Translations under genes and position numbers: made by a program
Notes under the pieces: generated by a model
The model's database searches: none
The model's input: only the letters and a program-made list of their open reading frames with translations
Told to the model about the DNA's origin: nothing
NCBI GenBank assembly: GCA_963717295.1
Contig: OY970330.1
Coordinates: 7,932,822 to 7,996,821, forward strand
Source: Thermoanaerobaculaceae bacterium
GTDB taxonomy: Bacteria > Acidobacteriota > Thermoanaerobaculia > Multivoradales > UBA5704
Length of the DNA stretch: 64,000 bases
Direction of reading: 5' to 3'
In this document: in pieces, positions 3,269-61,615 of the stretch
Numbering within the stretch: position 1 is the stretch's first letter
How the letters are laid out: every line of letters begins with the position of its first letter

Positions 3269-3369
3269 CGGTTCCTCCAATGAAGGTTGGCTCTTGGGGA
3301 GCGTTCAGCGGCAAGTCTAGCCGAATTCTCAAGGCAACTCCGCGGCCGCCGCCTCCGTATCTGACGATC

Positions 3370-3993
3370 ATGAAGACAGACGCCGAGCTGGTCGCCAGTA
3401 CTCTGCGAGGCTCCCAGGACGCCTTCCGCGAGCTGGTGGTGCGCTTCGAGCGGCCGGTCTACACCCTCGTGCAGCGCATGGTCCAGAACCCGGCGACCGC
3501 CGAGGATCTGGCGCAGGAGGTCTTCCTCAAAGCCTACCGCCGGCTCGACACCTACGATCCGCAGTGGAAGTTTTCGAGCTGGCTGTTCAAGATCGCGCAC
3601 AACACGACCATCGACCACCTGCGCCGGGGCGTGCCGGAGACGGTGCCCCTGGAGTCGGAGGACGAGGACCGGGGGAGTCTCTCCGCCGTGCTGGCGGACG
3701 AGACGGGCGAGAGCCCGCACGCGGCGGCGGAACGGCGGGACTTGGGGCGCTCGCTGGAGCGGGCCCTCTCGCACCTGCGGCCGGAGTACCGCGTGGCGGT
3801 CGTCATGTTCTACGCTCAGGGCGCCTCGTACCAGGAGATCTGCGAGGTCACCGGCCTGCCGCTCGGCACGGTGAAGACCAACCTCCACCGGGCGCGCAAG
3901 GAGCTGGCCCAGGTGATGACGGCCCTCGGCTGGGGGCCGGGGGGCACGGCACCGGCGGGTCCCGCTGAAACCGGAAACGCCCGCGCCTCGTAG
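3370..3993 (+). CDS. RNA polymerase sigma-70 factor, ECF subfamily
   Basis: Region 2 (ATAEDLAQEVFLKAYRRLDTYDP) and region 4 (YRVAVVMFYAQGASYQEICEVTGLPLGTVKTNLHRARKEL) motifs. Confidence 0.85.
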   Translation: MKTDAELVASTLRGSQDAFRELVVRFERPVYTLVQRMVQNPATAEDLAQEVFLKAYRRLDTYDPQWKFSSWLFKIAHNTTIDHLRRGVPETVPLESEDEDRGSLSAVLADETGESPHAAAERRDLGRSLERALSHLRPEYRVAVVMFYAQGASYQEICEVTGLPLGTVKTNLHRARKELAQVMTALGWGPGGTAPAGPAETGNARAS

Positions 3994-4019
3994 GGCGGCT
4001 CAGAAGGAGAAATGACGGA

Positions 4020-4571
4020 ATGCGCCCCCATCCCCAAGACACCCAAGACGCCCTGAACCGCTGGCTCGCCGCCGAGCAGCTCGACAGCTCCGATGCCGCT
4101 GATCGTGCTCTGCGCGAGTTGTTCGAGGCCCTGCCCCTGCTCGCTCCGGCCGCCGGTTTCGCGGACCGGGCGTTCGCCCGGGCCGGGTTTCGGCCGGCGA
4201 AGCGGGACGTCTTCGCCTCGCTCGGACTCCGCCTGGTGCTGGCCGCCAGCCTGGTCGCCCTCAGTCTGGGTGCGATCTGGCTGCCTCCGGCTCTGCGGGC
4301 CCTCGGCGGCTGGTTCGGAGGGTTGTTCAGCCTGAGCGGCGTGGTGGGGTTGGGGACGCGGGGAATGTCCGAGGCCAGCCGTGGGCTGGCCTCGGTCCTG
4401 AGCCTGGGCGAGTGGCTGTTCTCGCTCGGTCAGGCCCTTTCCGGGCTGCTGTTGGCGCCGCGGGTCATGGCGGCTCTCGCCACATGTCTGCTCGTTTCGG
4501 GCCTGGCTTTCCGTTTTCTCCGCGCCCACATCTCTGGTGAGAGGAGTTTTAGCTATGTCGACCCCATCTGA
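4020..4571 (+). CDS. putative membrane anti-sigma factor
   Basis: Immediately downstream of the ECF sigma. N-terminal cytoplasmic segment followed by TM helices. No recognisable catalytic motifs. Confidence 0.45.
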   Translation: MRPHPQDTQDALNRWLAAEQLDSSDAADRALRELFEALPLLAPAAGFADRAFARAGFRPAKRDVFASLGLRLVLAASLVALSLGAIWLPPALRALGGWFGGLFSLSGVVGLGTRGMSEASRGLASVLSLGEWLFSLGQALSGLLLAPRVMAALATCLLVSGLAFRFLRAHISGERSFSYVDPI

Positions 4572-6174
4572 TTGGCAACGGTCCGCCGGCAAGAGATTTT
4601 TCCGCGCCGCGGTCGTTTTCTTGAGCCTCGGCGCGTCCGGGGCGATGTTTTCCGCGTCTCTCGCGGCGCCGCAGCCCGCCAGCAACCCGCCGGCTTCGGC
4701 GGAGGAGAGGACGAATCTGCGTCAGACCCTCGAGAGCCGGTACGAGGTGCTGCCGGTGCAGGGCGGCATCGCGCTCAAGCCCCGCCAGCCCAAGGCGGGA
4801 ATCCGTACCATCGAGGTGACCTCCGACGGCGTGGCGGTCAACGGTGAGCGGGTGACCGCCCGCACGCTGCACGACTGGCTTGGCACCGACGCCGACCTGG
4901 TGCTGCGCCTGCAGAGCTTGAGCGCGGCCGAGCAGCGGCAGACCTTCGGCCTCGAAGGCGGCGCCCCCGCGCCGGCTGCCCCCGCGGCCCCTCCGGCCCC
5001 CGCGGCCTCTCCCGCGGCGGAACCGGGCGAATCGGCCGGCAAGGACGGCGAGGCCGAGGTGAGCGACGAGCCCGCGGCCGAGGAGACTCCGGAGGCCTCC
5101 GCCCCCTCCGCGCGTCACGGCGACCGCCATACCTCCGGCAGCCGCGTCAACGTCGGCGGCAGCGTGACCGTCAGCAAGGACGAGGTGGCGGAAGAGGTGG
5201 TGGCCGTCGGCGGCTCGGCGACGGTCGAGGGCGAGGTGGAGAGGGACGTCACGGCCATCGGCGGCTCCGCCCGTATCAACGGCAAGGTGGGCGGCGAGGT
5301 GGTGGCGGTGGGCAGCGGCGTCTATCTCGGCCCCAACGCCGAGGTGGAGGGGGACGTGACGAGCGTCGGCGGTACGGTCCACCGGGAGCCGGGAGCGAGA
5401 GTGCAGGGCAGGACCAACGAGGTGGGCATGGGTATCCTGCCGTTCGGCCGCCACGTGCACTTCGGCCGCTACGGCCACGATTGGGAGCCCTGGGGCGGCG
5501 TCTCCCGGGTGATGAGCAGCACCCTGTTCACGGTGCTCATGGGGCTGCTCGTCTGCCTGGTGCTGCTCATCGCCCGCGCGCCGTTGGAGCGGGTGGACCG
5601 CCAGCTCGTGGCCCGGCCCTGGCCGTCGGCGGCTACGGGGCTCGCCGGGTTCGTCTTCTTCTGGCCGCTGGTGGCGGCGATGACCATCCTGCTGGCCATC
5701 ACCATCATCGGCTGCGCGCTGTTCCTGCTCTACCCGTTCCTGTTCCTGTTCGTCGGGCTGCTTCTCCTCCTGGGCTACTCGGCGTCGGCCTACCGTCTCG
5801 GCCGTCTGGTGGAGGGCCGCTTCGGCCGCAACTTCGGGAGCCAGTACGTGGCGGCGCTGGTGGGCGTGCTGCTGATCCAGGTGTGGTCCATCCTCGGCCA
5901 CATGCTGGACCTGCTGCCCGGCCCTCTCGGCTTTTTCGCCGCGATGGTGGGGCTGTTCGGATTCCTGGTGCAGGCCGTGGCCTGGATCGTGGGTTTCGGC
6001 GCCGTCATCCTCGCCCGCTTCGGCCTCGAGCCGGGCTACTGGCAGGGGCAGGGGCCGCCAATGGCGCCGATGACACCCGCTCCCGTGCCTCCAGATTCCT
6101 ATCAGGAGCCCGGCGAGCCGCTGCCGCTCTCCGACTCGGAGCCGCCGGCCGAGTGGCAGGAGCCGCCGCTGTAG
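4555..6174 (+). CDS. membrane protein with DUF4097/bactofilin-like beta-helical repeats (LiaG/YvlB-like)
   Basis: Signal/TM segment, Ala/Pro-rich linker, tandem repeats VGGSVTVSKDEV..VAVGGSATVEGEVERDVTAIGGSARINGKVGGEVVAVG, then 4-5 C-terminal TM helices. Third gene of the ECF operon. Confidence 0.5.
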   Translation: MSTPSDWQRSAGKRFFRAAVVFLSLGASGAMFSASLAAPQPASNPPASAEERTNLRQTLESRYEVLPVQGGIALKPRQPKAGIRTIEVTSDGVAVNGERVTARTLHDWLGTDADLVLRLQSLSAAEQRQTFGLEGGAPAPAAPAAPPAPAASPAAEPGESAGKDGEAEVSDEPAAEETPEASAPSARHGDRHTSGSRVNVGGSVTVSKDEVAEEVVAVGGSATVEGEVERDVTAIGGSARINGKVGGEVVAVGSGVYLGPNAEVEGDVTSVGGTVHREPGARVQGRTNEVGMGILPFGRHVHFGRYGHDWEPWGGVSRVMSSTLFTVLMGLLVCLVLLIARAPLERVDRQLVARPWPSAATGLAGFVFFWPLVAAMTILLAITIIGCALFLLYPFLFLFVGLLLLLGYSASAYRLGRLVEGRFGRNFGSQYVAALVGVLLIQVWSILGHMLDLLPGPLGFFAAMVGLFGFLVQAVAWIVGFGAVILARFGLEPGYWQGQGPPMAPMTPAPVPPDSYQEPGEPLPLSDSEPPAEWQEPPL

Positions 6175-6192
6175 GGCAGGATCTCGGTCAGG

Positions 6193-6225
6193 ACGGCTCG
6201 CCGGAAGGTCCGGCGAGCCGTTCCG
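6193..6225. repeat. 33-bp hairpin direct repeat, copy A (identical to recD2 3' end copy B at 8022-8054)
   Basis: ACGGCTCGCCGGAAGGTCCGGCGAGCCGTTCCG vs ACGGCTCGCCGGCAGGTCCGGCGAGCCGTTCCG, 32/33 identical. Confidence 0.75.
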
Positions 6226-6667
6226 AATCACGGCCCCTTGGACCGGCGTAGCACCAACGCCGGCGATACTTGGTCCCGCTCCACCGGACCCTTGCCTCAT
6301 CGCAGGTTACTGCTCGGCGTAGCAGGTGAATCGGGGCTGTTTAGCCGAATGCTGCAGCGCGATCCGCCCGCGCCAATTCTCACAGAGAGTTTAGTTAGGT
6401 CCGGAATCCGAGCTTCCAAAGACTTCGGGTAGGGTAACCGCGAAAAGCGCCCCCCACGGCACGCTTAACACATGCCGGCCTTGGTATTGACGCGGTTTAG
6501 AAACCGGGGTACAGTTCTAACCACCCGAAGAATGAAGCAGATAACCAAGCCTGAGGGATTCTGGATTTGAGCTGGGCTGAGTCCTAAGGACTTGGCGGAG
6601 AAGTTCAGAGTAAAGTTCGGCGCCGATACGTGGAATTCGAGTCTAGCTAAGCTAAAGGGAGGTAGAA

Positions 6668-7270
6668 ATGACATCCAATACGGCATCGCCAATTTTCAAT
6701 GTTTTCGGACTCCGGCCGGCCCTCAGAGGAAAAGTGAGCTTAATCGTGATCACCCTAGTCGGGGTACTCGTAACCCCATCAGTTCTATATTCGGCAGAGC
6801 AAAGCTCCTCACCTGCAGTCGAACTGGGTAATAGCGGGAAGAACGCTCCGTCGACATCAAAATATCAAAGTGCGGCAGGGAGGTATCTTGAGCCTGGAGA
6901 AGTTACCGACCTAGCTGAGGAGCGGAGCACTGCAACACCGTCACTTTTGGTTGGGAACGCGGCCGCCGGCCCGTTTCTCGTCTCCGCCGCACAATACGGC
7001 ATTGTCAGTCTTAGTCAAACTACAGGCGCGATCAATTTCTGTGCAGGTTATACCTACCTGAATTCAGGTATGCCATTTGGAAAGTGCAAAAAGATCGGAA
7101 CTATTTCGCCAACAGGACTCTTGGGTAACGCTAGAATAGATGCGACATCGAATACCCATGCCTTCGTCACAAATACTGCCACTGGGCTGGTTGTTGAATG
7201 CTATCTCGGTTTCAACTCTGGTAGTGGCGAGCCTGTCGGGAGTTGCATTTCGCAGCAGCTACAACCATAA
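6668..7270 (+). CDS. hypothetical secreted protein (low-GC islet)
   Basis: Strong RBS AAGGGAGGT 6 nt upstream of ATG. Signal/TM LIVITLVGVLVTPSVLYSA. About 48% GC against ~68% background. No recognisable domain. Confidence 0.55.
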   Translation: MTSNTASPIFNVFGLRPALRGKVSLIVITLVGVLVTPSVLYSAEQSSSPAVELGNSGKNAPSTSKYQSAAGRYLEPGEVTDLAEERSTATPSLLVGNAAAGPFLVSAAQYGIVSLSQTTGAINFCAGYTYLNSGMPFGKCKKIGTISPTGLLGNARIDATSNTHAFVTNTATGLVVECYLGFNSGSGEPVGSCISQQLQP

Positions 7271-7419
7271 AGATAAAAAGCGGCCGCCGAACAGCTCCCC
7301 TTGGCTGGCGTGATGAGGTTGATAAGGAAAGAGAAGATCTACATCTCGCCGGAGCAACAGGATCGTATCGCGTCGATTCTCGCTCGCCTTGGCGATTTAG
7401 GGAGCCGGACGGTCCGCCG

Positions 7420-8005
7420 TAGGCATACGGTGGTGGAATGTACGGATACGGCGGCTCGTCGTCAGCATCGGCGGCCCGATGTACGGATACGGCGCCACGT
7501 CGTAAGCATCGGGTGGAGCGTCGTATCGATACGGCGGCCCACCGTATCGATACGGCATGACGCCGTCAGCATCGGCGGCCCGATGTATGGATACGGCGCC
7601 ACGTCGTATCCATCCGGCGTCTCGTCGTCACCATCGGCGGAGCGTCGTATCGATACGACGGCTCACCGTATCGATACGGCGTGACGCCGTAAGCATCGGC
7701 GGCTCGATGTATGGATACGGCGCCACGTCGTATCCATCCGGCGGCTCGTCGTCCCCATCGGCGGAGCGTCGTATCGATACGACGGCTCACTGTATCGATC
7801 CGGCGTCATGCCATAAGCATCAGGCGGCCCGATGTATGGATACGGCGCCACGTCGTATCCATCCGGCGTCTCGTCGTCCCCATCGGCGGAACGTCGTATC
7901 GATACGACGGCTCACCGTATCGATCCGGCGTGACACCGTAAGCATCGGCGGCCCGATGGATGGATACGGCGTTACGTTGTATCGGTACGACGTCGGTGAT
8001 CTCCA
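7420..8005. repeat. tandem array of ~124-bp palindrome-rich repeat (about 4.5 copies)
   Basis: GCATCGGCGGCCCGATGTATGGATACGG recurs at ~7466, 7569, 7693, 7817, 7942. Each unit carries perfect palindromes CGTCGTATCGATACGACG and CCGTATCGATACGG. Period is not a multiple of 3 and ORFs are open on both strands. Confidence 0.85.
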
Positions 8006-50026: not shown

Positions 50027-50173
50027 TCCCCACCGCTGTCGGGCTGCGCCCGACTGGCGTGGTTTCCTGACGGCTATCGGGTCTCGATCTTTCCCTATCG
50101 GTCGGCCCTTTGACCAAACCCCGCCAGTCGGGCGCACCGGCCTCGATACTCGGCCTTCCCGACAGCGGTGGGG
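50027..50173. other. nested imperfect inverted repeat; candidate oriT (or attachment site) upstream of the coupling-ATPase gene
   Basis: CCCCACCGCTGTCGGG / CCCGACAGCGGTGGGG outer arms (16 bp) and GCGCCCGACTGGCG / CGCCAGTCGGGCGC inner arms (14 bp), about 60 nt apart. Small hairpins TACATAC-AAG-GTATGTA and CCCC-ATAC-GGGG lie just upstream (49940-50016). Confidence 0.45.
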
Positions 50174-50428
50174 CACTGGCTTACGAAGGGCCGACGCTTC
50201 GCGTCACTACTGGCGAAGGCGTCGAAGCTCTCCGCCTTGGCAGGAAGGAAACCACGCGCGAGACTTACGCTCGCGCCTACCTCTCTTGCCGCGCCCGCTC
50301 GGTCACCACACGCCGTATTGCGGGCGTCACCGTGGAGCTTCCAGGCACGGGTTCTGCGGTCCTCCCTAGCGGGGAGGACACTGGCTCCCCATGGGGAGGG
50401 GAAGAGAGGTCGGGCGCCTTCCTATCCC

Positions 50429-51709
50429 ATGGACCACACCCCTATCGCAATCGGCACCCGCACGTATTGGGTTTCGGATGACCCGAAGCTTGTTTTGCTG
50501 CATCCCGAGGACCGGGCACAGCACCTCTATGTCGTCGGAAAGACGGGGCTCGGCAAGAGCACCTTGCTTCGGAACCTCATCCTCCAGGACCTCTATGCCG
50601 GGCGAGGTGTGGGTCTCCTTGATCCTCATGGAGACCTCGCGCGCGATGTATTGGACGCGATCCCGCGCGGACGCACGAACGACGTGCTCTATTTCAACCC
50701 CGGCGACCTCGCGCGTCCCGTGGGCCTGAATCTCCTGCCCAGGGTTCCGCGCGACGAGGAACATCTTGTCGTGGCCGGAGTCCTCTCCGCCTTCCGGGGG
50801 ATCTGGGGCTCGAGCTGGGGACCGCGCCTCGAATACATCCTGGGACATGCCCTGGCGGCGCTCCTTGACCACGGCCAGCTCACGATCCTCGCCCTACCTC
50901 GTCTCCTATCGGACGACGCCTTCCGGGAGCGCCTCACGGCGCGTGTTCGAGATCCGATTGTCCGTGCCTTCTGGCGCGACGAGTACGCCCGCTACGAGAA
51001 GCGCTTTCGGCTTGAAGCCATCGCCCCGATCCAAAACAAGATCGGGCGCCTCCTCTCGAACGCTCCGATGCGGAACATCATGGGCCAGGTGAAAAGCCGC
51101 TTCGACGCGGGATTCCTCATGGACCGGAGCCGGATCATGATCGCCAATCTCTCGAAAGGCGTGATCGGCGACGACCATGCCCGTCTCCTTGGGGCGCTTC
51201 TCCTCTCGCAGTTCCAATGGGCGGCGATGCGGAGGGCGGCGTTGCCGTATGCTGCCCGCACCCCCTTCCACCTCTACATCGACGAGTTCCAGAGCTTCGC
51301 GACCGATGCCCTCACCTCCATCCTCGCGGAGGCCAGGAAATACGGGCTCGCCCTCGTTCTCGCCCACCAGTACCTCGATCAGCTCACCGACGAGATCCGG
51401 CAAAGCGTATTCGGCAATGCCGGCAACCTCATTGCCTTCCGGGTGGGCCAAGCCGATGCCCGTATCCTTGAGGACGAGCTCGGCGGCGACGTGAAGATGG
51501 GGAACCTCGTTTCCTTGGGGAAGCACGAGATCTATGCCCGGCTCCTGGACGAGGGCCGGATGCGGGAGCCCTTCCGGGGCAAGACCCTGGCGCCCGTCCG
51601 GGGCACCGCGACCGGCCGGCGGGAGGCGGTGATCCGGCAATCGCGGGAGCGGTATGGTAGGCCGCGGGCGGAGGTGGAGGGGAAGATCGAACGGTGGCTT
51701 GGCGGCTGA
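50429..51709 (+). CDS. TraD/TrwB-like conjugative coupling P-loop ATPase (paralog of the 997-aa protein's core)
   Basis: Walker A YVVGKTGLGKST, LLDPHGDLARDVL, Walker B HLYIDEFQSF. Aligns with residues ~380-800 of the 43920..46913 product. Confidence 0.6.
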   Translation: MDHTPIAIGTRTYWVSDDPKLVLLHPEDRAQHLYVVGKTGLGKSTLLRNLILQDLYAGRGVGLLDPHGDLARDVLDAIPRGRTNDVLYFNPGDLARPVGLNLLPRVPRDEEHLVVAGVLSAFRGIWGSSWGPRLEYILGHALAALLDHGQLTILALPRLLSDDAFRERLTARVRDPIVRAFWRDEYARYEKRFRLEAIAPIQNKIGRLLSNAPMRNIMGQVKSRFDAGFLMDRSRIMIANLSKGVIGDDHARLLGALLLSQFQWAAMRRAALPYAARTPFHLYIDEFQSFATDALTSILAEARKYGLALVLAHQYLDQLTDEIRQSVFGNAGNLIAFRVGQADARILEDELGGDVKMGNLVSLGKHEIYARLLDEGRMREPFRGKTLAPVRGTATGRREAVIRQSRERYGRPRAEVEGKIERWLGG

Positions 51710-51756: not shown

Positions 51757-52764
51757 ATGTCCCATCTCCAGACCCGCAGACCCCGCTTCGATCGTGCACC
51801 GGTGCGCGGCATCATTCTTACGCCCCGCGACCTCGAGATTCTCCGCGCCGTCTGTCGCCACCGGCTCCTTCGCTCTACTCATCTCGTAGCTCTCTCCGGA
51901 GGAAGCCCCCAGGCGACGCTTCGCCGCTTACAGCTCCTTTTCCACCATGGCTACCTCGATCGGCCGCCCATGCAACTCGACTGGTACGCGCGAGGATCGG
52001 AGCCCATGGTCTATGCCCTCGGGACTCGGGGTGCGGAGGTTCTCGATACCGAGGGTGAACTGAGGCGGGGCGGTGTGCGTTGGGACACGAAAAACCGCAA
52101 CCTCTCCCGCGTCTTCCTTCATCACACGCTCGCGGTCGCCCAGGTCATGGTGGCCTTCGAGGTCGCTTGCCGGAGGCGCGAGGGGGTGCAGTTCATCTCG
52201 CCGGAAGACGTGCTTGCCGGAGCGCCACCTGAGACTCGGCGTCTGCGCCTTCCCTTCCGCTGGCAGGTCGAGGTCCGCCAAGGCGGCAAGCTCTACCATC
52301 TGGGCGTCGAGCCGGATCGGGTCTTCGGCCTGCACTTCGAGGGTGTGCCGGAGAACCGGAGTCGAGCGTTCTTCTTCCTCGAAGCGGACCGGGGCACTAT
52401 GCCAGTTGAGAGGAAGGGCCTCGTGCAGACAAGCTTTCTCCGCAAGATCTTCGCGTACCGAGAGACCTGGCGGCAGGGACTCCACAAGGAGCACCTCGGC
52501 ATCCCGAACTTCCGAGTCCTCACTGTAACGACGAGCGAGGAGCGGGTGGGGCACTTGGTTGGGGCGTGTCGGTCGTTATCCGGAGGCGGCTCGCGCCTTT
52601 TTCTCTTCACGACCGGGGAACTAGATCGCGAAGACATTCTCGCCCAATGGTGGGAGAGTGGGAGGGGCGAACTCGTGAGACTCTTCGGGGCCACCCGAAC
52701 CTCCCCGCCGGAAGTGAAGGATACACATCTCTTGGAGGGGCCGATGACCTCCTCCGAGACTTAG
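51757..52764 (+). CDS. replication-relaxation family protein (Replic_Relax, putative relaxase-like)
   Basis: N-terminal wHTH ILTPRDLEILRAVCRHRLLRSTHLVAL and overall Replic_Relax layout. Adjacent to the coupling ATPase. Confidence 0.6.
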   Translation: MSHLQTRRPRFDRAPVRGIILTPRDLEILRAVCRHRLLRSTHLVALSGGSPQATLRRLQLLFHHGYLDRPPMQLDWYARGSEPMVYALGTRGAEVLDTEGELRRGGVRWDTKNRNLSRVFLHHTLAVAQVMVAFEVACRRREGVQFISPEDVLAGAPPETRRLRLPFRWQVEVRQGGKLYHLGVEPDRVFGLHFEGVPENRSRAFFFLEADRGTMPVERKGLVQTSFLRKIFAYRETWRQGLHKEHLGIPNFRVLTVTTSEERVGHLVGACRSLSGGGSRLFLFTTGELDREDILAQWWESGRGELVRLFGATRTSPPEVKDTHLLEGPMTSSET

Positions 52765-52966: not shown

Positions 52967-54970
52967 ATGCAAGACGGTTCGAGTGGCAGAAAAAGATCTT
53001 CCAATTTTCAGATAGCTCGCCTCACAGATCCTGAAGCAGTGAATGTCCGCCAATATGGAGGAAAGATTTCGAACCTTGCCCGTCTAACTACGATAGGTAG
53101 TCGTGTCCCTTCAGGCTTGGCACTCGGCAAACAAGTGCTCGCCTATTTTCTTAGTGAAAACGAGATTGACCTCGCGGCTCTCGACCAAATTCATAGCCGC
53201 GGCATGATTTTCCTTGAATCAGCTCTAAGCGAAGCACAAACGTGGCAAGAAAGGATCGTCTCAACTATCCGGGATGGAAGATTCCCTCCGGATATACAGG
53301 CGACGCTCCTTGATGAGTTATTCGACGGTCGTCGATATGCGGTTCGTTCCTCGTGTGTAGTAGAGGATTCCTCCTCTACCTCGTTCGCAGGACAGTACAT
53401 GACGGTTCTCGGTGTTTCGGGTCACAGCGCACTTCTAGACGCAATTCGTTCATGCTGGTCATCTCAATATGACGGTCGGGTTCTCACTTATGCTCTCTCT
53501 CGCCGTGGAATGCCTGTTCTCATTCCATCCATGGCGATTCTGATCCAGGAAATGCTGGAGCCGGAGTTTGCTGGCGTTTGCTTTTCTGAGGGTCCGACTC
53601 CACGAACTAGAGACTTCACAATTGTCGAGAGTGTTGATGGTATTGGAGAAGCGCTAGTTAGCGGTGAAAAGACACCAGCACACTTCGAGGTTGCGAAGGA
53701 TGGCTCCATTCATCGCGCATTGGTTAATCCCGCGACTGGAAAAGTCCCGACCGAGAACCAAATTGTAGCTGTTGCCGACGAGGCAAAACGAATTTCTACA
53801 GCCTTCGGTTCTCCCCAGGATATTGAATGGGCAATTGCCAATGACCAACTTTTCCTTCTTCAAGCACGACCAATAACAGTTCTCGGAGGCCAAAGAACGG
53901 CATCCATTCCTACATTCGGTGGAGACCAGACTAAGAGACCTTCTCTTGGCGGTGAACAGGTTGTCGCGACTTCCGAGATCCTTCGCGACGATCTTCATGA
54001 GTGGCTGATCGCGCGGATCGATCCACTCGTCTATCGGGGAGCGGCCTACCTGCTTTCGAAACAGCATGAGGATGGGTCTTGGAAGGTTGAGGGTCATCCA
54101 GAGTGGGATTGTGTTGCCACGGCTCTGACGGTAAGACTATTGCTAGACGGTGGTGTTCCGAGCATGTTGACGTGGTCACTACCAGGGCGGGCGAATGACG
54201 CACCTGCTCTCGGAGTTCAGGCTGCAATAGGCTGGTTAGTAAGAAATATAAAAGAGGATGGCAGTTGGGGAACTGATCTCTGGGATACCTGCCAAGTAAT
54301 CAGAGCTCTCCTACGCTCGGGATTCACCCTTGATGAGCCTATTCTAGCCTCAGCGTTTACTCAAGTGACATCGCAATTGGCCAGGGGGATGACCAGTGTC
54401 GCAGAGCAAGAATGGGCCGGTGCCGGCTTTCTCGCTGTTGTTCTGCAACTCCTACATGACGCTCGAAAGCAGCCAATGCTCGATGATTTCATGTCCCTTC
54501 TCCTGGAAGCGCAAACAGCAGAAGGCGATTTTCCTGCGTTCTACCGCGGCAGTCGCGACCCAGTTCCATCGGAATGGCACACGGCCCAAGCGATCACTGC
54601 TCTTAGTCACTGTTGCGCTGGAAAAGGCGATGTAATGACTGCCGTGCAAAGAGCACAGGATTGGCTTGTTTCACGCCAGCATGGCAACGGTTCATGGGGA
54701 GTTAGCGCTGGGTCCTATTCCCATTTCAATACGTTCTTCACATCCTATGCCATCGTCTCTTTCTCAAACGAAGACCTCCCTCGAAGCGATACCGTGACGA
54801 AGGCCCTAAGGTGGTTACGCGGAAAACAACTGGCATCCGGCGCATTTGGCGACATTGCATCATCGTTGATGGCATTGAGCGCCTTCCAACATGTCCGAGG
54901 GCGAATATTTTCCCTTGATATGCCAATCCCTCTTTTTCTGAGAATCCAAAGTTGTCTTAGTAAGGCATGA
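52967..54970 (+). CDS. fusion protein: PEP-utilizing-enzyme ATP-binding (PPDK_N / ATP-grasp-like) domain + alpha/alpha-toroid domain with QW motifs (terpene cyclase / prenyltransferase-like)
   Basis: N-terminus VRQYGGKISNLARLTTIGSRVPSGLAL resembles GGKGANL..LG.PVP of PEP synthase/PPDK/rifampin phosphotransferase. C-terminus has QW-like repeats KQHEDGSWKV, NIKEDGSWGTDLWDT, SRQHGNGSWGVS, GKQLASGAFGD. About 50% GC. Confidence 0.6.
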   Translation: MQDGSSGRKRSSNFQIARLTDPEAVNVRQYGGKISNLARLTTIGSRVPSGLALGKQVLAYFLSENEIDLAALDQIHSRGMIFLESALSEAQTWQERIVSTIRDGRFPPDIQATLLDELFDGRRYAVRSSCVVEDSSSTSFAGQYMTVLGVSGHSALLDAIRSCWSSQYDGRVLTYALSRRGMPVLIPSMAILIQEMLEPEFAGVCFSEGPTPRTRDFTIVESVDGIGEALVSGEKTPAHFEVAKDGSIHRALVNPATGKVPTENQIVAVADEAKRISTAFGSPQDIEWAIANDQLFLLQARPITVLGGQRTASIPTFGGDQTKRPSLGGEQVVATSEILRDDLHEWLIARIDPLVYRGAAYLLSKQHEDGSWKVEGHPEWDCVATALTVRLLLDGGVPSMLTWSLPGRANDAPALGVQAAIGWLVRNIKEDGSWGTDLWDTCQVIRALLRSGFTLDEPILASAFTQVTSQLARGMTSVAEQEWAGAGFLAVVLQLLHDARKQPMLDDFMSLLLEAQTAEGDFPAFYRGSRDPVPSEWHTAQAITALSHCCAGKGDVMTAVQRAQDWLVSRQHGNGSWGVSAGSYSHFNTFFTSYAIVSFSNEDLPRSDTVTKALRWLRGKQLASGAFGDIASSLMALSAFQHVRGRIFSLDMPIPLFLRIQSCLSKA

Positions 54971-54992
54971 AACTCAAACGAGGATCTCCAAA

Positions 54993-56099
54993 ATGAAAGA
55001 CTTTAGTCCCCCCTTTCTCTCTTCGCTCGTTCCCATCTTAGAGGTCATTCCGAATGACCTGCTTCCTTGGATTGCAGAAAAGCATATGGGTTACCTGGAC
55101 GACCGTATCCATAAGATAGATATTCTTACAGACTATCTAGCCGAATGTGATTCGGTTGCCGCCCAACGCAAGGAGTTCATTGCGTTTGTCGATGGATGGA
55201 CCCGTCAGGAGTGTGTTGACTTCCCTGTTTACATGACTGAATATCGTTCTCGGTATACCGAAGTGCGGGTTGGTGTAGAGGCGCAATGCGAACGTATCCT
55301 TGACGATGAAGAACTTTGGAAATCACCCGTAACGCTCTTGGAATTTTGGCGCGACTTCACCCTGCTCAATGAACTTGACAGTCTCCATGGGATGTTTCTC
55401 ACCTCCGGCCGTTGGTACGTTAACGTCATGCTTCCAGTGGTGAAGGAATTGGTACAGTGTTCATTGCCTAACGAGATATCACCGGGCGATCGAGTCAATC
55501 TCTCATACTTAGTCGCTCGGCGGGTAATTACCCCTCGGTTCGCAGAGGTGCCGGCCGAATTTCCTTCCCATCTAGAGCGCCGATTTTCCTCTCTCTTCAT
55601 TCCCGTCTTGCAGTACTTTGATAGGCAGTTATTGTTTTTATTTGAACAGATGTCTGATCTTCCCCTGCCTGACGATTATTCGATCCGGAAATTTGCGATG
55701 GATGTAAGCAGCAACCCCGATCCCTATCGAAACCTGTTGAGCCAAGGGATTTACCCGCCGTTCGCTTGGCATGAACTCTATTCGAGTAAAAGGCAGCGTC
55801 GCCCTGGAAAGAGTTTTGAAGAAGCAACGGCTAGATTTTTGGAGAGCGTGACGGAAGAGGACCGTCCGCGCGCTGACCAAGCGCTGGAGTTTCTTCGCTA
55901 TATGAAAGCATTTGAACTGAACTACAATAATTATAATTACAAGGGCAAGTTTGGCTTAGTTTCCAAATATTTTTACTGGCGCACAAGTCAACTTCTAAGA
56001 TCAGAAGACGTCTCGCCTTTTCTCGACGCTATCTTAGGCGATCGTTTTTTTGAAGCTCTTGGAGTGCTTGAGCGCGCTCTTCTGGCGAAAGGAGTTTAG
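54993..56099 (+). CDS. hypothetical protein (368 aa), low GC, inside the cargo operon
   Basis: Stop/start spacing of 22 nt from the upstream gene and 3 nt to the next. No recognisable motif. Confidence 0.5.
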   Translation: MKDFSPPFLSSLVPILEVIPNDLLPWIAEKHMGYLDDRIHKIDILTDYLAECDSVAAQRKEFIAFVDGWTRQECVDFPVYMTEYRSRYTEVRVGVEAQCERILDDEELWKSPVTLLEFWRDFTLLNELDSLHGMFLTSGRWYVNVMLPVVKELVQCSLPNEISPGDRVNLSYLVARRVITPRFAEVPAEFPSHLERRFSSLFIPVLQYFDRQLLFLFEQMSDLPLPDDYSIRKFAMDVSSNPDPYRNLLSQGIYPPFAWHELYSSKRQRRPGKSFEEATARFLESVTEEDRPRADQALEFLRYMKAFELNYNNYNYKGKFGLVSKYFYWRTSQLLRSEDVSPFLDAILGDRFFEALGVLERALLAKGV

Positions 56100-56102
56100 G
56101 AG

Positions 56103-56429
56103 ATGGTAACCATTATCGGAATCAGTGCGTCGTCGGGTAGGGCGAAAGGCACTGCGAAGTGGATTCACACTGCTGAAGATCTTGAGGCATTTCAGGTTGG
56201 CGATATCCTGCTTGCCAAAATGACATCTCCTGATTGGGGACAGATCTTTCAAAAGGCAGGAGCAGTTGCGACAGAGCAAGGAGGGATGCTTTGTCACGCT
56301 GCGATCGTTGCCAGAGAGGAAGGAATTCCTGCTGTAGTAGGTCTCGGAGATGAGCTGGCGCAGATTCAGAATGGTACAGTGGTTACGGTGGATGGTGATG
56401 AAGGTACGGTGGAAGTAGAGATTGCTTGA
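56103..56429 (+). CDS. stand-alone PEP-utilizing enzyme mobile (phosphohistidine swivel) domain protein
   Basis: GGMLCHAAIVAREEGIPAVVGLG matches the PEP-utilizers signature (phospho-His in GG..SHAAIvARE.GiPaVvG). 108 aa. Confidence 0.65.
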   Translation: MVTIIGISASSGRAKGTAKWIHTAEDLEAFQVGDILLAKMTSPDWGQIFQKAGAVATEQGGMLCHAAIVAREEGIPAVVGLGDELAQIQNGTVVTVDGDEGTVEVEIA

Positions 56430-56460
56430 AGTAGCCGTCGAGTAGGCATATCATCAAACC

Positions 56461-57042
56461 ATGAAAGGAACGCAAATGGCCAGCATAGAAGTGTTATATG
56501 AGGGTTACGTTAAGGAAGGCGATGGTGGTGACATCGTGCGCAACACTGTCTGCCTCGTGCTGGATGATAACGTGAAGATGGTTGTCGATCCTGGTCTCGT
56601 AGAATCGCCGAGCATCCTGCTCAATGCGCTTGGGCGCTTCAATCTAACTGCTGACGACATCACTCACGTCTATGTGACTCACTATCACATGGACCACGTA
56701 CGCTATGTCGGTCTCTTTGCAAAGGCTATCGTAGTCGACTACAAATATTTCTATGATGGCGAACTATGGGGTGAGCACGAAGGAGATGGGCATTCGATAA
56801 CTAAGAATATCCGAATACTTCATACTCCCGGCCATACGCTGGACGACTCCGCGCTCCTGGTAGATACCGAAGATGGAGTAGTTGCAATTTCGCATATCTG
56901 GTGGTTTCAAGACAGAACACCTGAGGATGACCCAATGGCAACTGACCAGAGTCTTCTTGACGCCTCTAGAACCAAAGTGGAGGCAGTGGCTCAATGGATT
57001 ATTACGCCACACGGTGGCAGAATCGAGATCACGAAGAAGTAA
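56461..57042 (+). CDS. MBL-fold metallo-hydrolase
   Basis: THYHMDH (HxHxDH) plus downstream His/Asp ligands (HTPGHT, D..ALL). Confidence 0.7.
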   Translation: MKGTQMASIEVLYEGYVKEGDGGDIVRNTVCLVLDDNVKMVVDPGLVESPSILLNALGRFNLTADDITHVYVTHYHMDHVRYVGLFAKAIVVDYKYFYDGELWGEHEGDGHSITKNIRILHTPGHTLDDSALLVDTEDGVVAISHIWWFQDRTPEDDPMATDQSLLDASRTKVEAVAQWIITPHGGRIEITKK

Positions 57043-57493
57043 ATGACACTAGTCCAAGGAAACAAACAGGAAGGTATCGGAAGTGCTGATGCAAGTGTCG
57101 GGGAGGAGCCCCCCCCGCGCTTGCTGCTCGTCCGAGAATGTTCCCGATCTTGCTCGGCGACAGTTAGGCCTGTGCATAAGAAGTAGTTGATGCCAGAGTA
57201 GGCACACTCTTCCCAGGATCGACGGCGAGGCAGCCGTCCGAAGCGGGGGAAAGGTCCAAGCCATCGCCGGGGAAGTAGACGAGCCTGCTTACTGATGGAC
57301 TGTACTGGTCTGCCGCTGCTACCAGCCGGTCCCGAGGAAGATTGGCGCTTCGCGAACCGGGCGATCTGCATCCATTGGGGGAGAAGGATTCGGGTCGAGA
57401 CCCTTCCTAGACTGCCAAGCTGTTGCGAACTTACATTGAGATATCCCTCTTAGCCGATTTCCGGTTTAGATATCAGGGCTGTAGACTATGTAA

Positions 57494-60073
57494 ATGCCGA
57501 CTTCCCCAGACGTTTCGACTGAAATTCTCCAATGGTCGCAGGATCGCCCCGGTTGGCAACGGGACGCACTTCGGCGGCTTCTCTCGACAGGAGAGATTTC
57601 AACCACCGAGATCGATCAGCTCCTTCTCCTGTGCAAGGCGGCCAGGGGACTTGCGCAGCCCACCTCTCCCAATGTCCTCACCCGGAGCCATCTTCCTACC
57701 AAGAGCACCGGCGGGGACTCGACCTCGTTGGTTACTCTGACCCACCATTGCGGCGCGAACGCCTTGGCGTCCGAACAAACCATCGCATTCGGCCCACGCC
57801 TCACGATCGTCTATGGCCAGAATGCCGCGGGCAAGTCAGGCTACACAAGAATTCTCAAACAGGCATGCCGGTCGCGGGCCACTGAAAAGATTCTGGGCGA
57901 TCTTCTCAGCGGTGCATCGCCGGTGAAACTACAGGCCACAATCTCGTTCCGGCACGGCGCCGAGGAAACTCCAACGCTGTGGGCAATGGGCGATCCGCCT
58001 TCGGATGCTCTTGCGGCGGTTAGTGTATTCGACTCGGGCTGTGCGCCGGTTTATCTCCGGGATAAAACCGATGTCGCCTTCCGTCCCTTCGGCCTTGATA
58101 TATTCGACCGGCTGGCTTCCCTTTGTAGCGAACTGCGCAATCGACTCGAAAGCGAGAAGGTAAAGCTGAACATGCTCGCCTCGCCACTTCCGACATTTGC
58201 TGAGGCAACGAAGGTCAGATTCTTTATTGATCATCTGTCTTCCCTCACGAAACCGGAAGACCTTAGAAGCTTGGCCATCCTCTCGTCCACTGAGAGAGCA
58301 CGCCTTGAAGCGCTGCGAGGACACCAGCGTGATCTTCTCTCCGCCGATCCTAAGGCCCGGGCCAGGGAGCTAACCTCAAGAGCCGACCGTGTTGACTTAC
58401 TCAAGCGGCATATAGCGGATCTATTTGCGGTTCTACGGGGAAGCGCGCTATCAGATCTTCAAAAGTCGGCTGAGGCACTTCGGGCGGCGCAAGCATCACT
58501 CGCTCTCTTGAGGACTACAGCATTAACCCCCGACTTGCTTCCTGGCACAGGAGAGGAGAACTGGCGGAAGATGTGGGAAGCAGCCGAGGGATTCTCAGGA
58601 ATAGCTTATCCCGACTCCCCCTTTCCCGCTCTGACAGATGATGCGCGATGCCCTCTCTGTCAGCAGGAGATAGGCGTGGAGGCTGAAGCACGACTTCGGC
58701 ATTTTGCCGAATATGTCGCATCAACGGCTCAAACGCGAGTACGCGAGGCGGAGAGAGCATATGGAGCGTCTCTTTCCCTGTTAAACCAAGCGGTGATTGT
58801 CCGGCCCGATATTGAGTTGGCGATTAGCGAGCTCCGCCTAGAGAATGAGCAACTTGCCCAGAGCGTCCAAGGCTTCTTGCAAAACGCTGGACAAACTCGA
58901 AAAGGGATCAATGAAGCTCTAGCACAAGGCGTGGGATTCTTGGCAAGCGTGGTCCAGAGTCCCGAAGCGGAATTGCAGGCAGCTGCCTTGAGCCTTCGCG
59001 AACGAGCCAAACAACTATTGGCCGAGCAGCCAACGATGAATCCCGAAGCTATAAGCGAGCTGAAGGAGCTAGAGGCCCGTTTGACCCTTGGCGAGCATAT
59101 GGACGCTGTCCTTGAGGCGATTGAACGCAAAAAGCAATTGGCGGCCTACGAGCTGTGCCTATCCGACACGACAACCCAAGCAATAACTCGGAAGAGTACG
59201 GAGTTGACAACCCAATTGGTGACAGATCAGCTCAAGGCTGGATTCCAGGAGGAGTTGAAGGCTCTAGAGTTTAATCATCTCGCTGTTGCGGTCCAGCCAG
59301 CGGGAGGCGCCAGAGGAACGCTGTTTCACCGGCTTATCTTCACCAACGCACCAGGAGTCACTATCACCAATGTACTTAGCGAGGGAGAGTCGAGGACTCT
59401 TTCGCTCGCTTCTTTCCTCACAGAGCTAAAGACCGCCGAGAGTCGCTCCGCAATCATCTTTGACGACCCCGTTTCTTCGCTGGATCATATGTGGCGGGAG
59501 AGAATAGCTCGAAGACTTGTCGCAGAAGCTGCGACGCGTCAGGTCATCGTGTTTACTCATGACATTCTCTTTCTAAGATTCCTCGCAGACGAAGCGACAA
59601 GGTTTGGCGTAGACTGCAAGCATCAATATATCCAGCGTGACACTCAGGTCGGTATATGCACGGAAGACCTCCCGTGGATTGCCATGAATACCTCTGCCCG
59701 TATCAGAAGAATGCGGGAGCGCTATCAGGAAGCCGAGAAGCTCTTCCGCACCTTCCCCGAGAAATACGAGGACGCGGCTCGCGGTATTTATCGCCTCCTT
59801 CGAGAGGCATGGGAGCAAGCAACCACAGAAGTTCTCCTCAACGATGTTGTTCAGCGATATCGTCCGAGCATCGAGACCAATAAAGTAAGGCTTCTACATG
59901 ATATTACTCCTGATGACTGCAAGGCGATCGAAGCAGGAATGACAGAGTGCTCACGTTGGCTCCACGATCAGCCTGCCGCCGACGGCACCCCTTTTCCAAG
60001 GCCAGATGCCCTCAAAAGCCGGATTGATGACCTTGACGGATTAGTGAAAGCCATTAAAAAGCGACGCCCTTAA
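57494..60073 (+). CDS. large ABC/Rad50-like ATPase with a coiled-coil CxxC zinc hook; RloC/PrrC-like candidate anticodon nuclease (859 aa)
   Basis: Walker A GQNAAGKSGYT, long coiled coil containing DARCPLCQQEI (zinc-hook-like), ABC signature LSEGESRTLSLA, Walker B AIIFDDP, H-loop VFTHD, then a ~170-aa C-terminal domain containing R..E...H spacing. Confidence 0.45.
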   Translation: MPTSPDVSTEILQWSQDRPGWQRDALRRLLSTGEISTTEIDQLLLLCKAARGLAQPTSPNVLTRSHLPTKSTGGDSTSLVTLTHHCGANALASEQTIAFGPRLTIVYGQNAAGKSGYTRILKQACRSRATEKILGDLLSGASPVKLQATISFRHGAEETPTLWAMGDPPSDALAAVSVFDSGCAPVYLRDKTDVAFRPFGLDIFDRLASLCSELRNRLESEKVKLNMLASPLPTFAEATKVRFFIDHLSSLTKPEDLRSLAILSSTERARLEALRGHQRDLLSADPKARARELTSRADRVDLLKRHIADLFAVLRGSALSDLQKSAEALRAAQASLALLRTTALTPDLLPGTGEENWRKMWEAAEGFSGIAYPDSPFPALTDDARCPLCQQEIGVEAEARLRHFAEYVASTAQTRVREAERAYGASLSLLNQAVIVRPDIELAISELRLENEQLAQSVQGFLQNAGQTRKGINEALAQGVGFLASVVQSPEAELQAAALSLRERAKQLLAEQPTMNPEAISELKELEARLTLGEHMDAVLEAIERKKQLAAYELCLSDTTTQAITRKSTELTTQLVTDQLKAGFQEELKALEFNHLAVAVQPAGGARGTLFHRLIFTNAPGVTITNVLSEGESRTLSLASFLTELKTAESRSAIIFDDPVSSLDHMWRERIARRLVAEAATRQVIVFTHDILFLRFLADEATRFGVDCKHQYIQRDTQVGICTEDLPWIAMNTSARIRRMRERYQEAEKLFRTFPEKYEDAARGIYRLLREAWEQATTEVLLNDVVQRYRPSIETNKVRLLHDITPDDCKAIEAGMTECSRWLHDQPAADGTPFPRPDALKSRIDDLDGLVKAIKKRRP

Positions 60074-60079
60074 GGCGCT

Positions 60080-61615
60080 CTAGTCGCTTAGGCTAATGCT
60101 TCCATTGTTCCCTTGGGAACTGACAAGCATCAGCATTAACTGTCGCAGAAGCTTATCCCAAGTTCGAGGTACGTCTCGGTGTGGGGCACCAGACCAATTT
60201 TTTACCCGCTCGGCAACTAGTTTCGCTTCCGGAAGCGCTGTAAAATCAATCGTCTTTTGATTCACTTGCCAGTTCGAGGTGAACAGAGCGACCAATTCGC
60301 GCTTTTCATCGTTCGTGCCCGATTGATACAGAGAATACGCGGAATCCAGCCGTTCGAGGAATTCGGTGAGCTTCTTCGGTCCGCTCCGCTCCGGATCGTC
60401 CAACGCAGCAAGCTTCTCTTCGAGCGCCTGCTTTTCGGCAATGAGTGCCGCCTTCCGTTCCTCGAAGAGATCGCGGTCGAGGAGCCCGTCCACCACCGCA
60501 TCGGCGAGGCGTCCGCGGCGCACCGCAAGCTGGCTGAGTTGCAGTTCAATCGTCTTTCTTTCTCTGGTCGCGTCATCCTCTTGGGTTGCCGTGAGGCTCC
60601 CGATCTTCTCGCGAATGTAGTCTCGCTCCTCCGGATCGAGCTGGCCGGCTTGAAGGAGCGGGGTGAGCTTCACCTCCGGCCCGTCCTCCCGCACGCTCGT
60701 GGTCGGACAGGTTCTCGTGTGGCAGCGGTAATAGACGTAGCCCTTCTGTCGCTCGCCGATCAAGGCATAGCCGCAACCTGTGCAATGGAGCGTCCGCCGG
60801 AAGAGGAAGTCGTGCATCACAGGCCGTGCGGAGAGCTTGCCGTCTAGGGCGGCCTGCACTCGCTCGAAGAGCGACCGCGAGATCAAGGGCTCATGAATGC
60901 CCTCGTAGACCTCGCCGCGCCGCTTGATCTTGATGAGCCCTACGTAGAAGGGATTGCGGAGAATGCCCGCGAGGCTGTTGATTGAGACCTCGCGGCCCAG
61001 GCGGTTCCTGAGGCCCTGCCGGTGCAGCTCCTCTTGGAGGGTGTGCAGGGTGTATCTGCCGGTTGCATAAAGCTCGAAGGCCCGCCGCGCGAGCGGCCCC
61101 TTCAAGGGATCGATTGTCTTTGGCTTTCCCGCGCCGCAGTCCAGGTATCCAATCGGCGCCTGCATCGGGAAGATGCCCTGACTTAGGCGCCCGTTGATGC
61201 CCTTCAAGGTCTCCTCGCGGAGATTGCGGATGAAGTCGGCGGCGACAACGGCCTGGATGTCGGCCGACAGGCGCCCGCCTCGGGTTTGGAGGTCGAGCGT
61301 CTCGTTTACGAAATGCACGGCGACGCCGCGGTCGATGAGTTCGCCGAGTTCCGCCCAGTCCCGGAGGTTCCGGGCACTGCGGTCAATCTTGTGGATCAGG
61401 ACCCCTTTGGCTTTGCCCTGCCGCAAGAGCCGGAGCATCTCCGTCCACTCCCGTCGGCCGCGCTTGGCGGCCGTCTCCCGCTCCTCAAACCAGCGCGCGA
61501 CCTCGAAGTGATTGCGCTCCGCAAAGCGCTCGATCGCGGCTCGCTGTTCCTGAAGCGAGACATGGCGCTCGCCTTGTCGGGGCGTCGAGACGCGGATATA
61601 TCCATAGAACATCAC
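60080..61615 (-). CDS. large serine recombinase (second copy, distinct sequence)
   Basis: YGYIRVSTPRQ (catalytic Ser in the resolvase domain), recombinase domain, Cys cluster CTGCGYAL...YYRCHTRTC, and a C-terminal coiled-coil. Confidence 0.85.
   Translation of the reverse strand: MMFYGYIRVSTPRQGERHVSLQEQRAAIERFAERNHFEVARWFEERETAAKRGRREWTEMLRLLRQGKAKGVLIHKIDRSARNLRDWAELGELIDRGVAVHFVNETLDLQTRGGRLSADIQAVVAADFIRNLREETLKGINGRLSQGIFPMQAPIGYLDCGAGKPKTIDPLKGPLARRAFELYATGRYTLHTLQEELHRQGLRNRLGREVSINSLAGILRNPFYVGLIKIKRRGEVYEGIHEPLISRSLFERVQAALDGKLSARPVMHDFLFRRTLHCTGCGYALIGERQKGYVYYRCHTRTCPTTSVREDGPEVKLTPLLQAGQLDPEERDYIREKIGSLTATQEDDATRERKTIELQLSQLAVRRGRLADAVVDGLLDRDLFEERKAALIAEKQALEEKLAALDDPERSGPKKLTEFLERLDSAYSLYQSGTNDEKRELVALFTSNWQVNQKTIDFTALPEAKLVAERVKNWSGAPHRDVPRTWDKLLRQLMLMLVSSQGNNGSISLSD

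Follow-up and report, generated by a model that had tools for sequence, protein, structure and literature searches.

The gene discussed here, which encodes an 859-residue ATPase and lies in a 64,000-nucleotide stretch of contig OY970330.1 from a Thermoanaerobaculaceae bacterium (referred to below as the window), is best approached by way of a few described systems, of which the closest is RloC. RloC (Geobacillus kaustophilus, Acinetobacter baylyi), on which what is known comes from the Kaufmann laboratory and which is entered as “not tested” in recent defence screens, resembles the window protein in being a single polypeptide with a split ATP-binding cassette (ABC) head, a coiled-coil insert bearing a CxxC hook followed by Q, and a C-terminal helical domain, and also in being standalone, laterally mobile and only sometimes linked to type I restriction-modification (R-M) systems. 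Its DNA-dependent ATPase and zinc hook constitute an internal switch by which the nuclease is first silenced and later activated, DNA breaks being the activating event in vivo (PMC3458546, PMC3874168). PrrC (E. coli, EcoprrI locus) is likewise an ABC ATPase with a C-terminal domain, in its case a HEPN-type nuclease, and some relatives of the window protein adjoin hsdMSR genes; however, PrrC is always linked to R-M and has neither coiled coil nor zinc hook, where the window protein has a coiled-coil and hook insert of ~390 residues (as judged from an AlphaFold2 model). The logic of an ABC/SMC-like sensor that licenses a toxic nuclease is shared by Lamassu (LmuB/LmuA), PARIS (AriA/AriB), OLD and Septu, although their effectors are Toprim, Cap4 or HNH and are mostly separate proteins, whereas the putative effector of the window protein is fused and helical. 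LmuB is a CxxC SMC-like protein (PMC12663957), and OLD and AriB are tRNases.

The gene in the window belongs to a catalogued candidate family, PDC-S06, and represents a variation on the RloC design rather than a system of a new kind; anyone specialising in defence islands would expect to meet much the same on an integrative conjugative element (ICE). The reading favoured here, to which we would assign a probability of roughly 0.5, is that it encodes a self-contained, single-protein RloC-type defence module carried as ICE cargo. The parts of this reading are not all equally secure: a role in defence or conflict is probable, the chances that the C-terminal domain (the tail) is an RNase are about even, and specificity for the anticodon loop is doubtful. 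The initial annotation had called the gene an RloC/PrrC-like candidate anticodon nuclease; this is borne out in part, for an RloC-related defence candidate it is, while the defence role itself, the DNA-sensing trigger, the RNase activity and the tRNA target are what we infer.

The RloC-like scaffold

That the gene is real, and not a chance open reading frame (ORF) of a genome rich in guanine plus cytosine (GC), follows from its 1441 homologues at an expect value (E) <= 1e-5, the best 120 of which are all ~860 residues long and 52-71% identical to it over their full length (no source gives the name RloC to any of these 120, a further point of difference from RloC). Every motif of the split ABC head that had been named from the sequence alone is found, and at the kind of position given for it: Walker A (GQNAAGKSG) at residues 108-116, the signature (LSEGESRTL) at 628-636, Walker B (IIFDDP) at 654-659 and the H-loop (FTHD) at 687-690, to which may be added the D-loop (SSLD) at 661-664. 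The gap from Walker A to the signature and Walker B had been put at about 550 residues; the split head holds, the actual gap being 512-546, and the C-terminal domain of ~170 residues corresponds to the 169 that remain beyond the H-loop. Throughout 116 close relatives G113, K114, C386, C389, G631, D657, D658, P659 and H689 are invariant, and the same ATPase and hook residues are invariant, positions of the K567 type excepted, in 83 distant relatives of 26-45% identity; S662 and D664 of the D-loop are likewise invariant in relatives.

An AlphaFold2 model built from the family alignment (mean predicted local distance difference test, pLDDT, 83) has a mixed alpha/beta head and an all-helical tail (733-857), and places long helices (202-371 and 395-590) on both sides of the invariant CxxC (CPLC, residues 386-389), bearing out the long coiled coil with a central CPLC that had been proposed. 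When the whole model is compared with the PDB using Foldseek, the matches are to the heads of cohesin and condensin SMC proteins and to Rad50, RecN and JetC, the lowest E being 2e-8. A zinc hook is predicted from the invariance of C386 and C389, from the flanking helices and from the alignment with the CPFCQQ of classical RloC that is described below.

Amongst the PADLOC models, PDLC04891 (PDC-S06) gives 691 bits and E 6.1e-208, covering residues 9-858 and profile positions 5-857 of 858, and a second PDC-S06 model, PDLC04893, gives 553 bits. Other defence ATPases come far lower (mad3 45 bits, LmuB 42, AriA 38, PrrC 19.6), and the better match to LmuB, AriA or a housekeeping ABC protein that would have told against the initial annotation was not found, PDC-S06 being far ahead. 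With Pfam, AAA_13 (PF13166) reaches 56.1 bits against a cut-off of 36, over residues 384-703 and profile positions 256-583 of 713 only; NCBIfam gives sub-threshold ABC matches only (RecF, for instance, 27.6 bits against a cut-off of 172); and sequence searches of the PDB, with the single sequence and with profiles, produced only weak matches to the heads of AriA and Rad50, no structure of RloC or PrrC and no match to the tail.

PDC-S06 is a computational candidate family that lumps together 13 hidden Markov models, spanning classical RloC (PDLC04886 and others) and a clade of ~860-residue proteins (PDLC04888, 04891, 04892, 04893; here also called the long clade), and in the literature searched it is listed in surveys with no function attached. 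A useful classical reference is a 736-residue “AAA family ATPase” from a Citrobacter freundii plasmid (L008:3254-5461), which has CPFCQQ and MRNILE-x40-SH and matches PDLC04886 with E 5e-250. It also matches AAA_13 end to end (profile 3-712) with 349 bits, as compared with 56 bits, from hook to H-loop only, for the window protein, and it matches the PrrC model over residues 437-716 (profile 91-341 of 372, E 1e-18), that is, across the nuclease domain; the name “wobble nucleotide-excising tRNase” is given to several of its homologues by NCBI, JGI or UniRef. Because this reference, with its classical RloC features, falls in PDC-S06, the latter can be equated with the RloC superfamily, and by sequence comparison the window protein falls not in the branch of classical RloC but in another, the ~860-residue clade.

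The relationship between these two branches is seen most clearly from an hhalign comparison of 83 diverse members of the clade of the window protein with 43 classical RloC sequences. Residues 81-837 of the window protein are matched to 2-698 of RloC in a single alignment (probability 99.4%, E 1.8e-21), in which ARCPLCQQ is in register with DDICPFCQQ and all of the ATPase motifs are also in register. The scaffold of the clade is therefore homologous to that of classical RloC, and the RloC-like architecture suggested earlier (an ABC head in two halves, an invariant CxxC within a coiled coil, and an extra C-terminal domain) is upheld. The window protein differs from RloC in having ~80 extra residues at its N-terminus, for which classical RloC has no counterpart, the hhalign match beginning only at residue 81. 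The conserved residues of this N-terminal domain are W14 and S15, and W21, Q22, R23, D24, A25, L26, R27 and R28 (QRDALRRL); it has no Pfam, PHROGs or specific NCBIfam match, and may be a sensor or partner-binding module. It is kept in diverged form across the ~860-residue clade (for example as LPYWAKYL or NDEWVRYIV). Several “RloC” proteins of 833-895 residues in the 2008 orthologue table were flagged there as “poor ACNase triad?”, ACNase standing for anticodon nuclease (PMC2610378), and these may belong to the same clade.

The C-terminal domain as putative effector

When a profile of the C-terminal domain (residues 724-859) was searched against 1.84 billion representatives (E <= 1e-3), the domain family was found to comprise at least 2167 clusters at 50% identity, and in the best 150 matches the domain is always the C-terminal end of a ~860-residue protein or of a fragment of one. 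Modelled by itself (AlphaFold2, pLDDT 86), it has helices at 733-753, 755-786, 806-821 and 837-857, together with a short one at 790-794. Pfam, NCBIfam and PHROGs hold nothing specific for it. Weak matches of the tail to PADLOC LmuA (E 0.009) and Pfam Imm49 (E 0.12) were set aside as uninterpretable, and a reading of its “HD” doublets as those of an HD-phosphohydrolase was rejected, the first His (H802) not being conserved in distant relatives.

In the tails of the relatives of 26-45% identity R770, W773, S820, H824 and P835 are invariant, and R736, Y758, E774, E778, E779, R788, T795, D808 and D825 are conserved to at least 90%. The predicted placement of these residues puts R770, E774, E778 and E779 in helix 2 and R788 in the insert that separates this helix from helix 3, while helix 3 ends with S820 and R821 and the loop begins with H824. 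The HEPN fold is a four-helix up-down bundle in which helices 2 and 3 frequently have an insert between them and helix 2 carries an acidic residue, and some HEPN families keep the H but not the R of the motif (Anantharaman et al. 2013, PMC3710099). As modelled, the tail fits this anatomy point by point, and at the top of the Foldseek matches of the tail to the PDB stand HEPN proteins (2hsb, 7ae9, 7ae8, 7ae6, 7bxo_H, 4nqf, 5yep_C). Most close relatives have C-S-R-W-x-R-G-H-D, which is the canonical Rx4H, whereas the window protein and 12 others of the 269 sequences scanned have the short form S-R-W-[LMV]-H-[DN]; the long and short forms each recur in many lineages, so the short form of the window protein is a natural variant and not a sign of decay.

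For RloC orthologues a rule has been given, Arg-X3-Glu-X36-52-His, with a Ser often preceding the His (Davidov & Kaufmann 2008, PMC2610378). The spacing R770-x3-E774-x49-H824 conforms to this rule and is kept down to 26% identity, but the pattern is a loose one, and S820, although invariant, is four residues ahead of H824 and not adjacent to it as is the Ser of the rule. Looking for the Arg/Glu/His triad in the tail, as had been suggested, therefore meets with partial success, in that the pattern is present while direct alignment of the C-terminal domain to those of RloC and PrrC does not succeed.

An indirect connection to RloC is provided by a subgroup of 19 tails of the long clade (160 further loci having been gathered from genome and metagenome contigs), which have the motif R-Y-[IM]-[DE]-[AG]-H-[SLT]-H-S-[DE]. 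This subgroup joins the tail of the window protein, with HMMER scores of 31-46 bits and an hhalign probability of 99.2%, and when it is compared by hhalign with the tail of classical RloC the result is P 1.2e-4 and a score of 33.3; the reversed control scores 16.1, and 100 column shuffles score 13.3+-2.6 with a maximum of 24.7, none of the 100 reaching 33.3. The corresponding motif of classical RloC is Y-R-A-I-N-R-H-S-H-S-D, in which the R, N, R, S, second H and D are invariant and the spacing is identical to that in the subgroup. Because the match of the His motif of the subgroup to that of RloC stands above the shuffles, the sequences support a common origin of this region and, with it, a tail of diverged RloC/HEPN type. 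The members of the subgroup (loci L089-L108, L036, L060, L066 and L070, with the motif in the C-terminal ~150 residues) are natural intermediates, and would lend themselves best to an initial biochemical test.

There are, however, a number of observations that weigh against such an origin and against a nuclease function for the tail. Similarity of the tail to the PrrC/RloC anticodon nuclease, which the initial annotation had itself put forward as decisive, fails at the level of direct sequence comparison, since hhalign of the C-terminal domains of the clade of the window protein against those of classical RloC gives P 0.44. The PADLOC PrrC model touches residues 646-707 only, in the region of Walker B, the AAA_13 match ends at residue 703, short of the tail, and PADLOC assigns divergent tails to models 04888, 04891 and 04893 only; jackhmmer, given tails that were cut 22 residues beyond the H-loop, unites those of the long clade but does not extend to classical RloC at any point, nor does a search in the opposite direction succeed. 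The tail is a separate HMMER family from the C-terminal domain of RloC, and its SRWLHD, with one His as against the R-H-S-H-S-D of RloC, is R-x2-H, having a two-residue deletion and no second His, the one that does not vary in classical RloC. H824 aligns instead with the first His of H-S-H, and hhalign puts the R-x3-E of RloC nearer to R788 than to R770, leaving the mapping of residues ambiguous. The bridging similarity itself extends over ~40 columns surrounding a single short motif, and may be the result of convergence. As to the fold, the HEPN matches found by Foldseek are weak (E 0.06-0.5, template-modelling scores 0.4-0.5) and generic four-helix bundles occur in the same list, while distant relatives have K, A, T or S in place of the HEPN Arg (R821) and retain the Ser and the His-Asp. 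Lastly, no phage-defence or nuclease assay is reported in the literature searched for the ~860-residue clade or for PDC-S06 as such.

If the RloC-type reading is correct, one can envisage a mechanism in which the Rad50-like ABC head would dimerise on ATP, two protomers probably also being tied together through the CxxC zinc hook, at the tip of the antiparallel coiled coil. Head and hook together would act as sensor and switch and, by analogy with RloC, would respond to DNA ends or to disturbed restriction upon the entry of phage or foreign DNA. The effector would be the C-terminal four-helix domain, a diverged HEPN-type, metal-independent RNase with a putative active site made up of H824 where helix 3 ends and R770 and E774 in helix 2, with perhaps R788, S820 and D825; released by the ATPase switch, it would cut host RNA, most likely in the anticodon loops of tRNA, whereupon translation would stop and the infection abort.

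The alternative that survives best, although we consider it somewhat improbable, retains the same sensor and supposes that the effector is not an RNase. The tail would then be regulatory, a means of oligomerisation, a nucleic-acid-binding domain or some other enzyme, and the protein might clamp or bridge foreign DNA ends (as do Rad50/SbcC, Lamassu and Wadjet SMC proteins) or recruit a host nuclease in trans. A tail with no direct similarity to any nuclease family, with Foldseek matches that are not significant and with a canonical HEPN Arg that is not conserved across the family is what one might expect in such a case, and the nearest scaffolds are those of the DNA-handling SMC, Rad50 and JetC proteins, with SbcCD-like pairs of genes (AAA_27 plus Metallophos) adjoining in 4 loci. 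It must be remembered, however, that the invariant or near-invariant polar set R770, E774, R788, S820, H824 and D825 is typical of a catalytic site, that these residues are placed where a HEPN active site sits, that one subgroup has the RloC His motif, and that there is no conserved partner gene to supply an effector.

To return to the RloC-type reading, it may be carried a step further, although only tentatively, by supposing that the ~860-residue clade (PDLC04888/04891/04893) is a distinct and very large sister family of RloC, with its own N-terminal three-helix sensor or adaptor, a re-tooled HEPN effector (a single invariant His plus R-x3-E, with no obligatory Arg) and possibly another trigger or substrate (other tRNAs, rRNA or mRNA), and that it forms a major branch of ABC-HEPN immunity, common on conjugative plasmids of Klebsiella and Pseudomonas. 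The clade is a large, uncharacterised one, widespread clinically, and its putative effector site does not follow the canon. Were the RloC-type reading true, a large family would prove to be a self-regulated RNA-cutting suicide switch related to RloC, thousands of genes would acquire a function, and the RloC/PrrC paradigm would be extended to a branch in which the N-terminal module differs and the HEPN site is non-canonical; phage therapy and plasmid biology would be affected as well. The family is frequent on clinical plasmids of Klebsiella and Pseudomonas.

Genomic setting in the window and among relatives

Table 1 Features of the 859-residue ABC/zinc-hook protein gene and of its neighbours (positions in the window)
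Feature	Position	Strand	Basis or remark
ORF, whole gene	57494..60073	+	ATG start, 859 residues + stop; ABC/zinc-hook protein, PDC-S06 (PDLC04891)
N-terminal ~80-residue three-helix domain	57494..57733	+	AlphaFold2 helices 7-15, 20-32, 37-50
ABC head, N-terminal half; Walker A GQNAAGKSG (nt 57815-57841)	57734..58093	+	motif position, G113/K114 invariance, Foldseek SMC/Rad50 heads E 2e-8
Coiled-coil arm, ascending (residues ~201-384)	58094..58645	+	AlphaFold2 secondary structure; best structural matches SMC/Rad50 coiled-coil heads
Predicted zinc-hook apex CPLC (nt 58649-58660), then conserved QQ	58646..58669	+	invariance, start of AAA_13 match, hhalign to CPFCQQ
Coiled-coil arm, descending (residues ~393-592)	58670..59269	+	AlphaFold2 helices 395-590
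ABC head, C-terminal half; LSEGESRTL 59375-59401, IIFDDP 59453-59470, SSLD 59474-59485, FTHD 59552-59563	59270..59662	+	motifs; Pfam AAA_13, AAA_21, SMC_N
C-terminal ~136-residue helical domain, putative effector; LREAWE nt 59798-59815, CSRWLHD nt 59948-59968	59663..60070	+	AlphaFold2 domain model, conservation
TrwB/TraD-type (T4) coupling protein	50168-51709		upstream of the 859-residue gene
Replic_Relax protein	51757-52764		upstream of the 859-residue gene
Four-gene cassette, GC 48-52%	52967-57042		upstream of the 859-residue gene
Large serine recombinase	60080-61615	-	downstream, convergent

The features of the gene and of its immediate surroundings are collected in Table 1. Across ~53-60 kb the GC content is 48-58%, as against 65-70% around it, so that the low-GC cargo setting described earlier is borne out by measurement; from this drop, taken together with the conjugation neighbours and the recombinase, it follows that the gene is cargo on an integrative conjugative element. 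A CHC2 primase-like gene also lies downstream, and no hsd genes adjoin the 859-residue gene in the window. The 451 bp immediately upstream (57043-57493) are without a called gene, the only ORF being an antisense one of 126 residues (56991-57371); no sigma-70-like promoter was found in this stretch and no obvious ribosome-binding site ahead of the ATG, and a scan for promoters and terminators around the gene gave nothing above chance. The rloC genes in general look poorly expressed (Davidov & Kaufmann 2008, PMC2610378).

The first gene of the upstream cassette encodes PPDK_N fused to a squalene-hopene-cyclase-like (terpene-cyclase-like) domain (667 residues), and the others a 368-residue protein, a 108-residue PEP-utilizers mobile domain and a 193-residue metallo-beta-lactamase (among the Pfam matches of which is a weak one to Anti-Pycsar_Apyc1). 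A homologue of the window protein on another element (P0006 on L002, 68% identical) comes directly after the same pair of coupling-protein and Replic_Relax genes with no such cassette, and because this backbone lacks it the cassette and the 859-residue gene are independent pieces of cargo. A functional link between the two was rejected for this reason and for want of any conserved neighbour; thus the gene does indeed lie beside a phosphotransfer operon and a serine recombinase, as had been noted, but its association with the operon is coincidental. The cassette is separate cargo, possibly an anti-defence or small-molecule module, and the ICE in the window carries, independently of it, at least one defence-type cargo gene.

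Turning to the relatives, a survey in which ORFs within 4 kb were clustered in 85 loci revealed no conserved partner gene. The commonest neighbour is the R subunit of a type I restriction system (HSDR_N, SWI2_SNF2, T1RH-like_C), present in 11 of the 85; others are an N6_N4 methylase, TraG/VirD4, and a pair comprising AAA_27 and a metallophosphatase (4 loci each), HsdM (3 loci), and also integrases, transposases, T4 coupling proteins, Dnd, ArdC, HEPN_AbiU2 and an AAA_15 ATPase. In one case (homologue P0066 of locus L003, ENA contig_30591) the gene starts 7 bp past the hsdR of an hsdMSR operon (2916-7994). In that operon hsdM is split into three ORFs (HsdM_N, N6_Mtase, N6_Mtase), followed by hsdS and hsdR, and such a decayed R-M system, with an RloC-like gene beside it that is intact, is reminiscent of the “cryptic type I R-M” surroundings given for RloC in 2008. 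For RloC genes, linkage to R-M was reported in 8 of 72 and linkage to ArdC in two (Davidov & Kaufmann, PMC2610378), and the R-M and ArdC context of the ~860-residue clade is similar. The gene is a standalone one, met with on mobile elements and in defence islands.

It is unlikely, to our mind, that the gene instead serves the ICE itself, as a factor in conjugation, plasmid competition, entry exclusion or addiction that might, for example, sense the DNA of an incoming or rival plasmid and would have no anti-phage role. Such a role would accord with the position of the gene after the coupling-protein and Replic_Relax genes both in the window and in L002, with TraG/VirD4 in 4 further loci, and with the 301 plasmid records that hold the family (111 of them Klebsiella and 45 Pseudomonas, the protein being always annotated “AAA family ATPase”), 139 of which are conjugative. 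Many members, however, lie in chromosomal defence islands with hsdMSR, Dnd, AbiU2 or AAA_15 and without conjugation genes, the family is present in many phyla, including bacteria of the candidate phyla radiation (CPR), and it keeps no fixed place with respect to transfer genes; defence genes carried as cargo by mobile genetic elements are, moreover, the commoner pattern. That the protein is a housekeeping DNA-repair ATPase, a paralogue of SbcC, RecN or Rad50 that is on the element by chance, is very improbable indeed, for despite the Foldseek and Pfam similarity to Rad50, SMC, RecN and RecF heads the NCBIfam matches are all far below their cut-offs, there is as a rule no SbcD/Mre11 partner, the distribution is patchy and borne by mobile elements, the gene is in low-GC cargo and the full-length match is to a defence-candidate family.

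Two further observations concern the plasmid-borne members. An identical homologue of ~871 residues (31.4% identity to the window protein) is common to many plasmids of Klebsiella, Pseudomonas, Raoultella and Aeromonas, and on many Klebsiella plasmids a 138-residue N-terminal remnant, corresponding to residues 10-146 of the window protein, occurs alone, which suggests recurrent truncation. Finally, on the same element as the gene in the window there is an ORF of the SymE_toxin family (L001 16343-16982, ~63836-64475 in window numbering) with an RHH_1 ORF nearby, these being further small toxin-antitoxin-like cargo at or just past the 3' end of the window.

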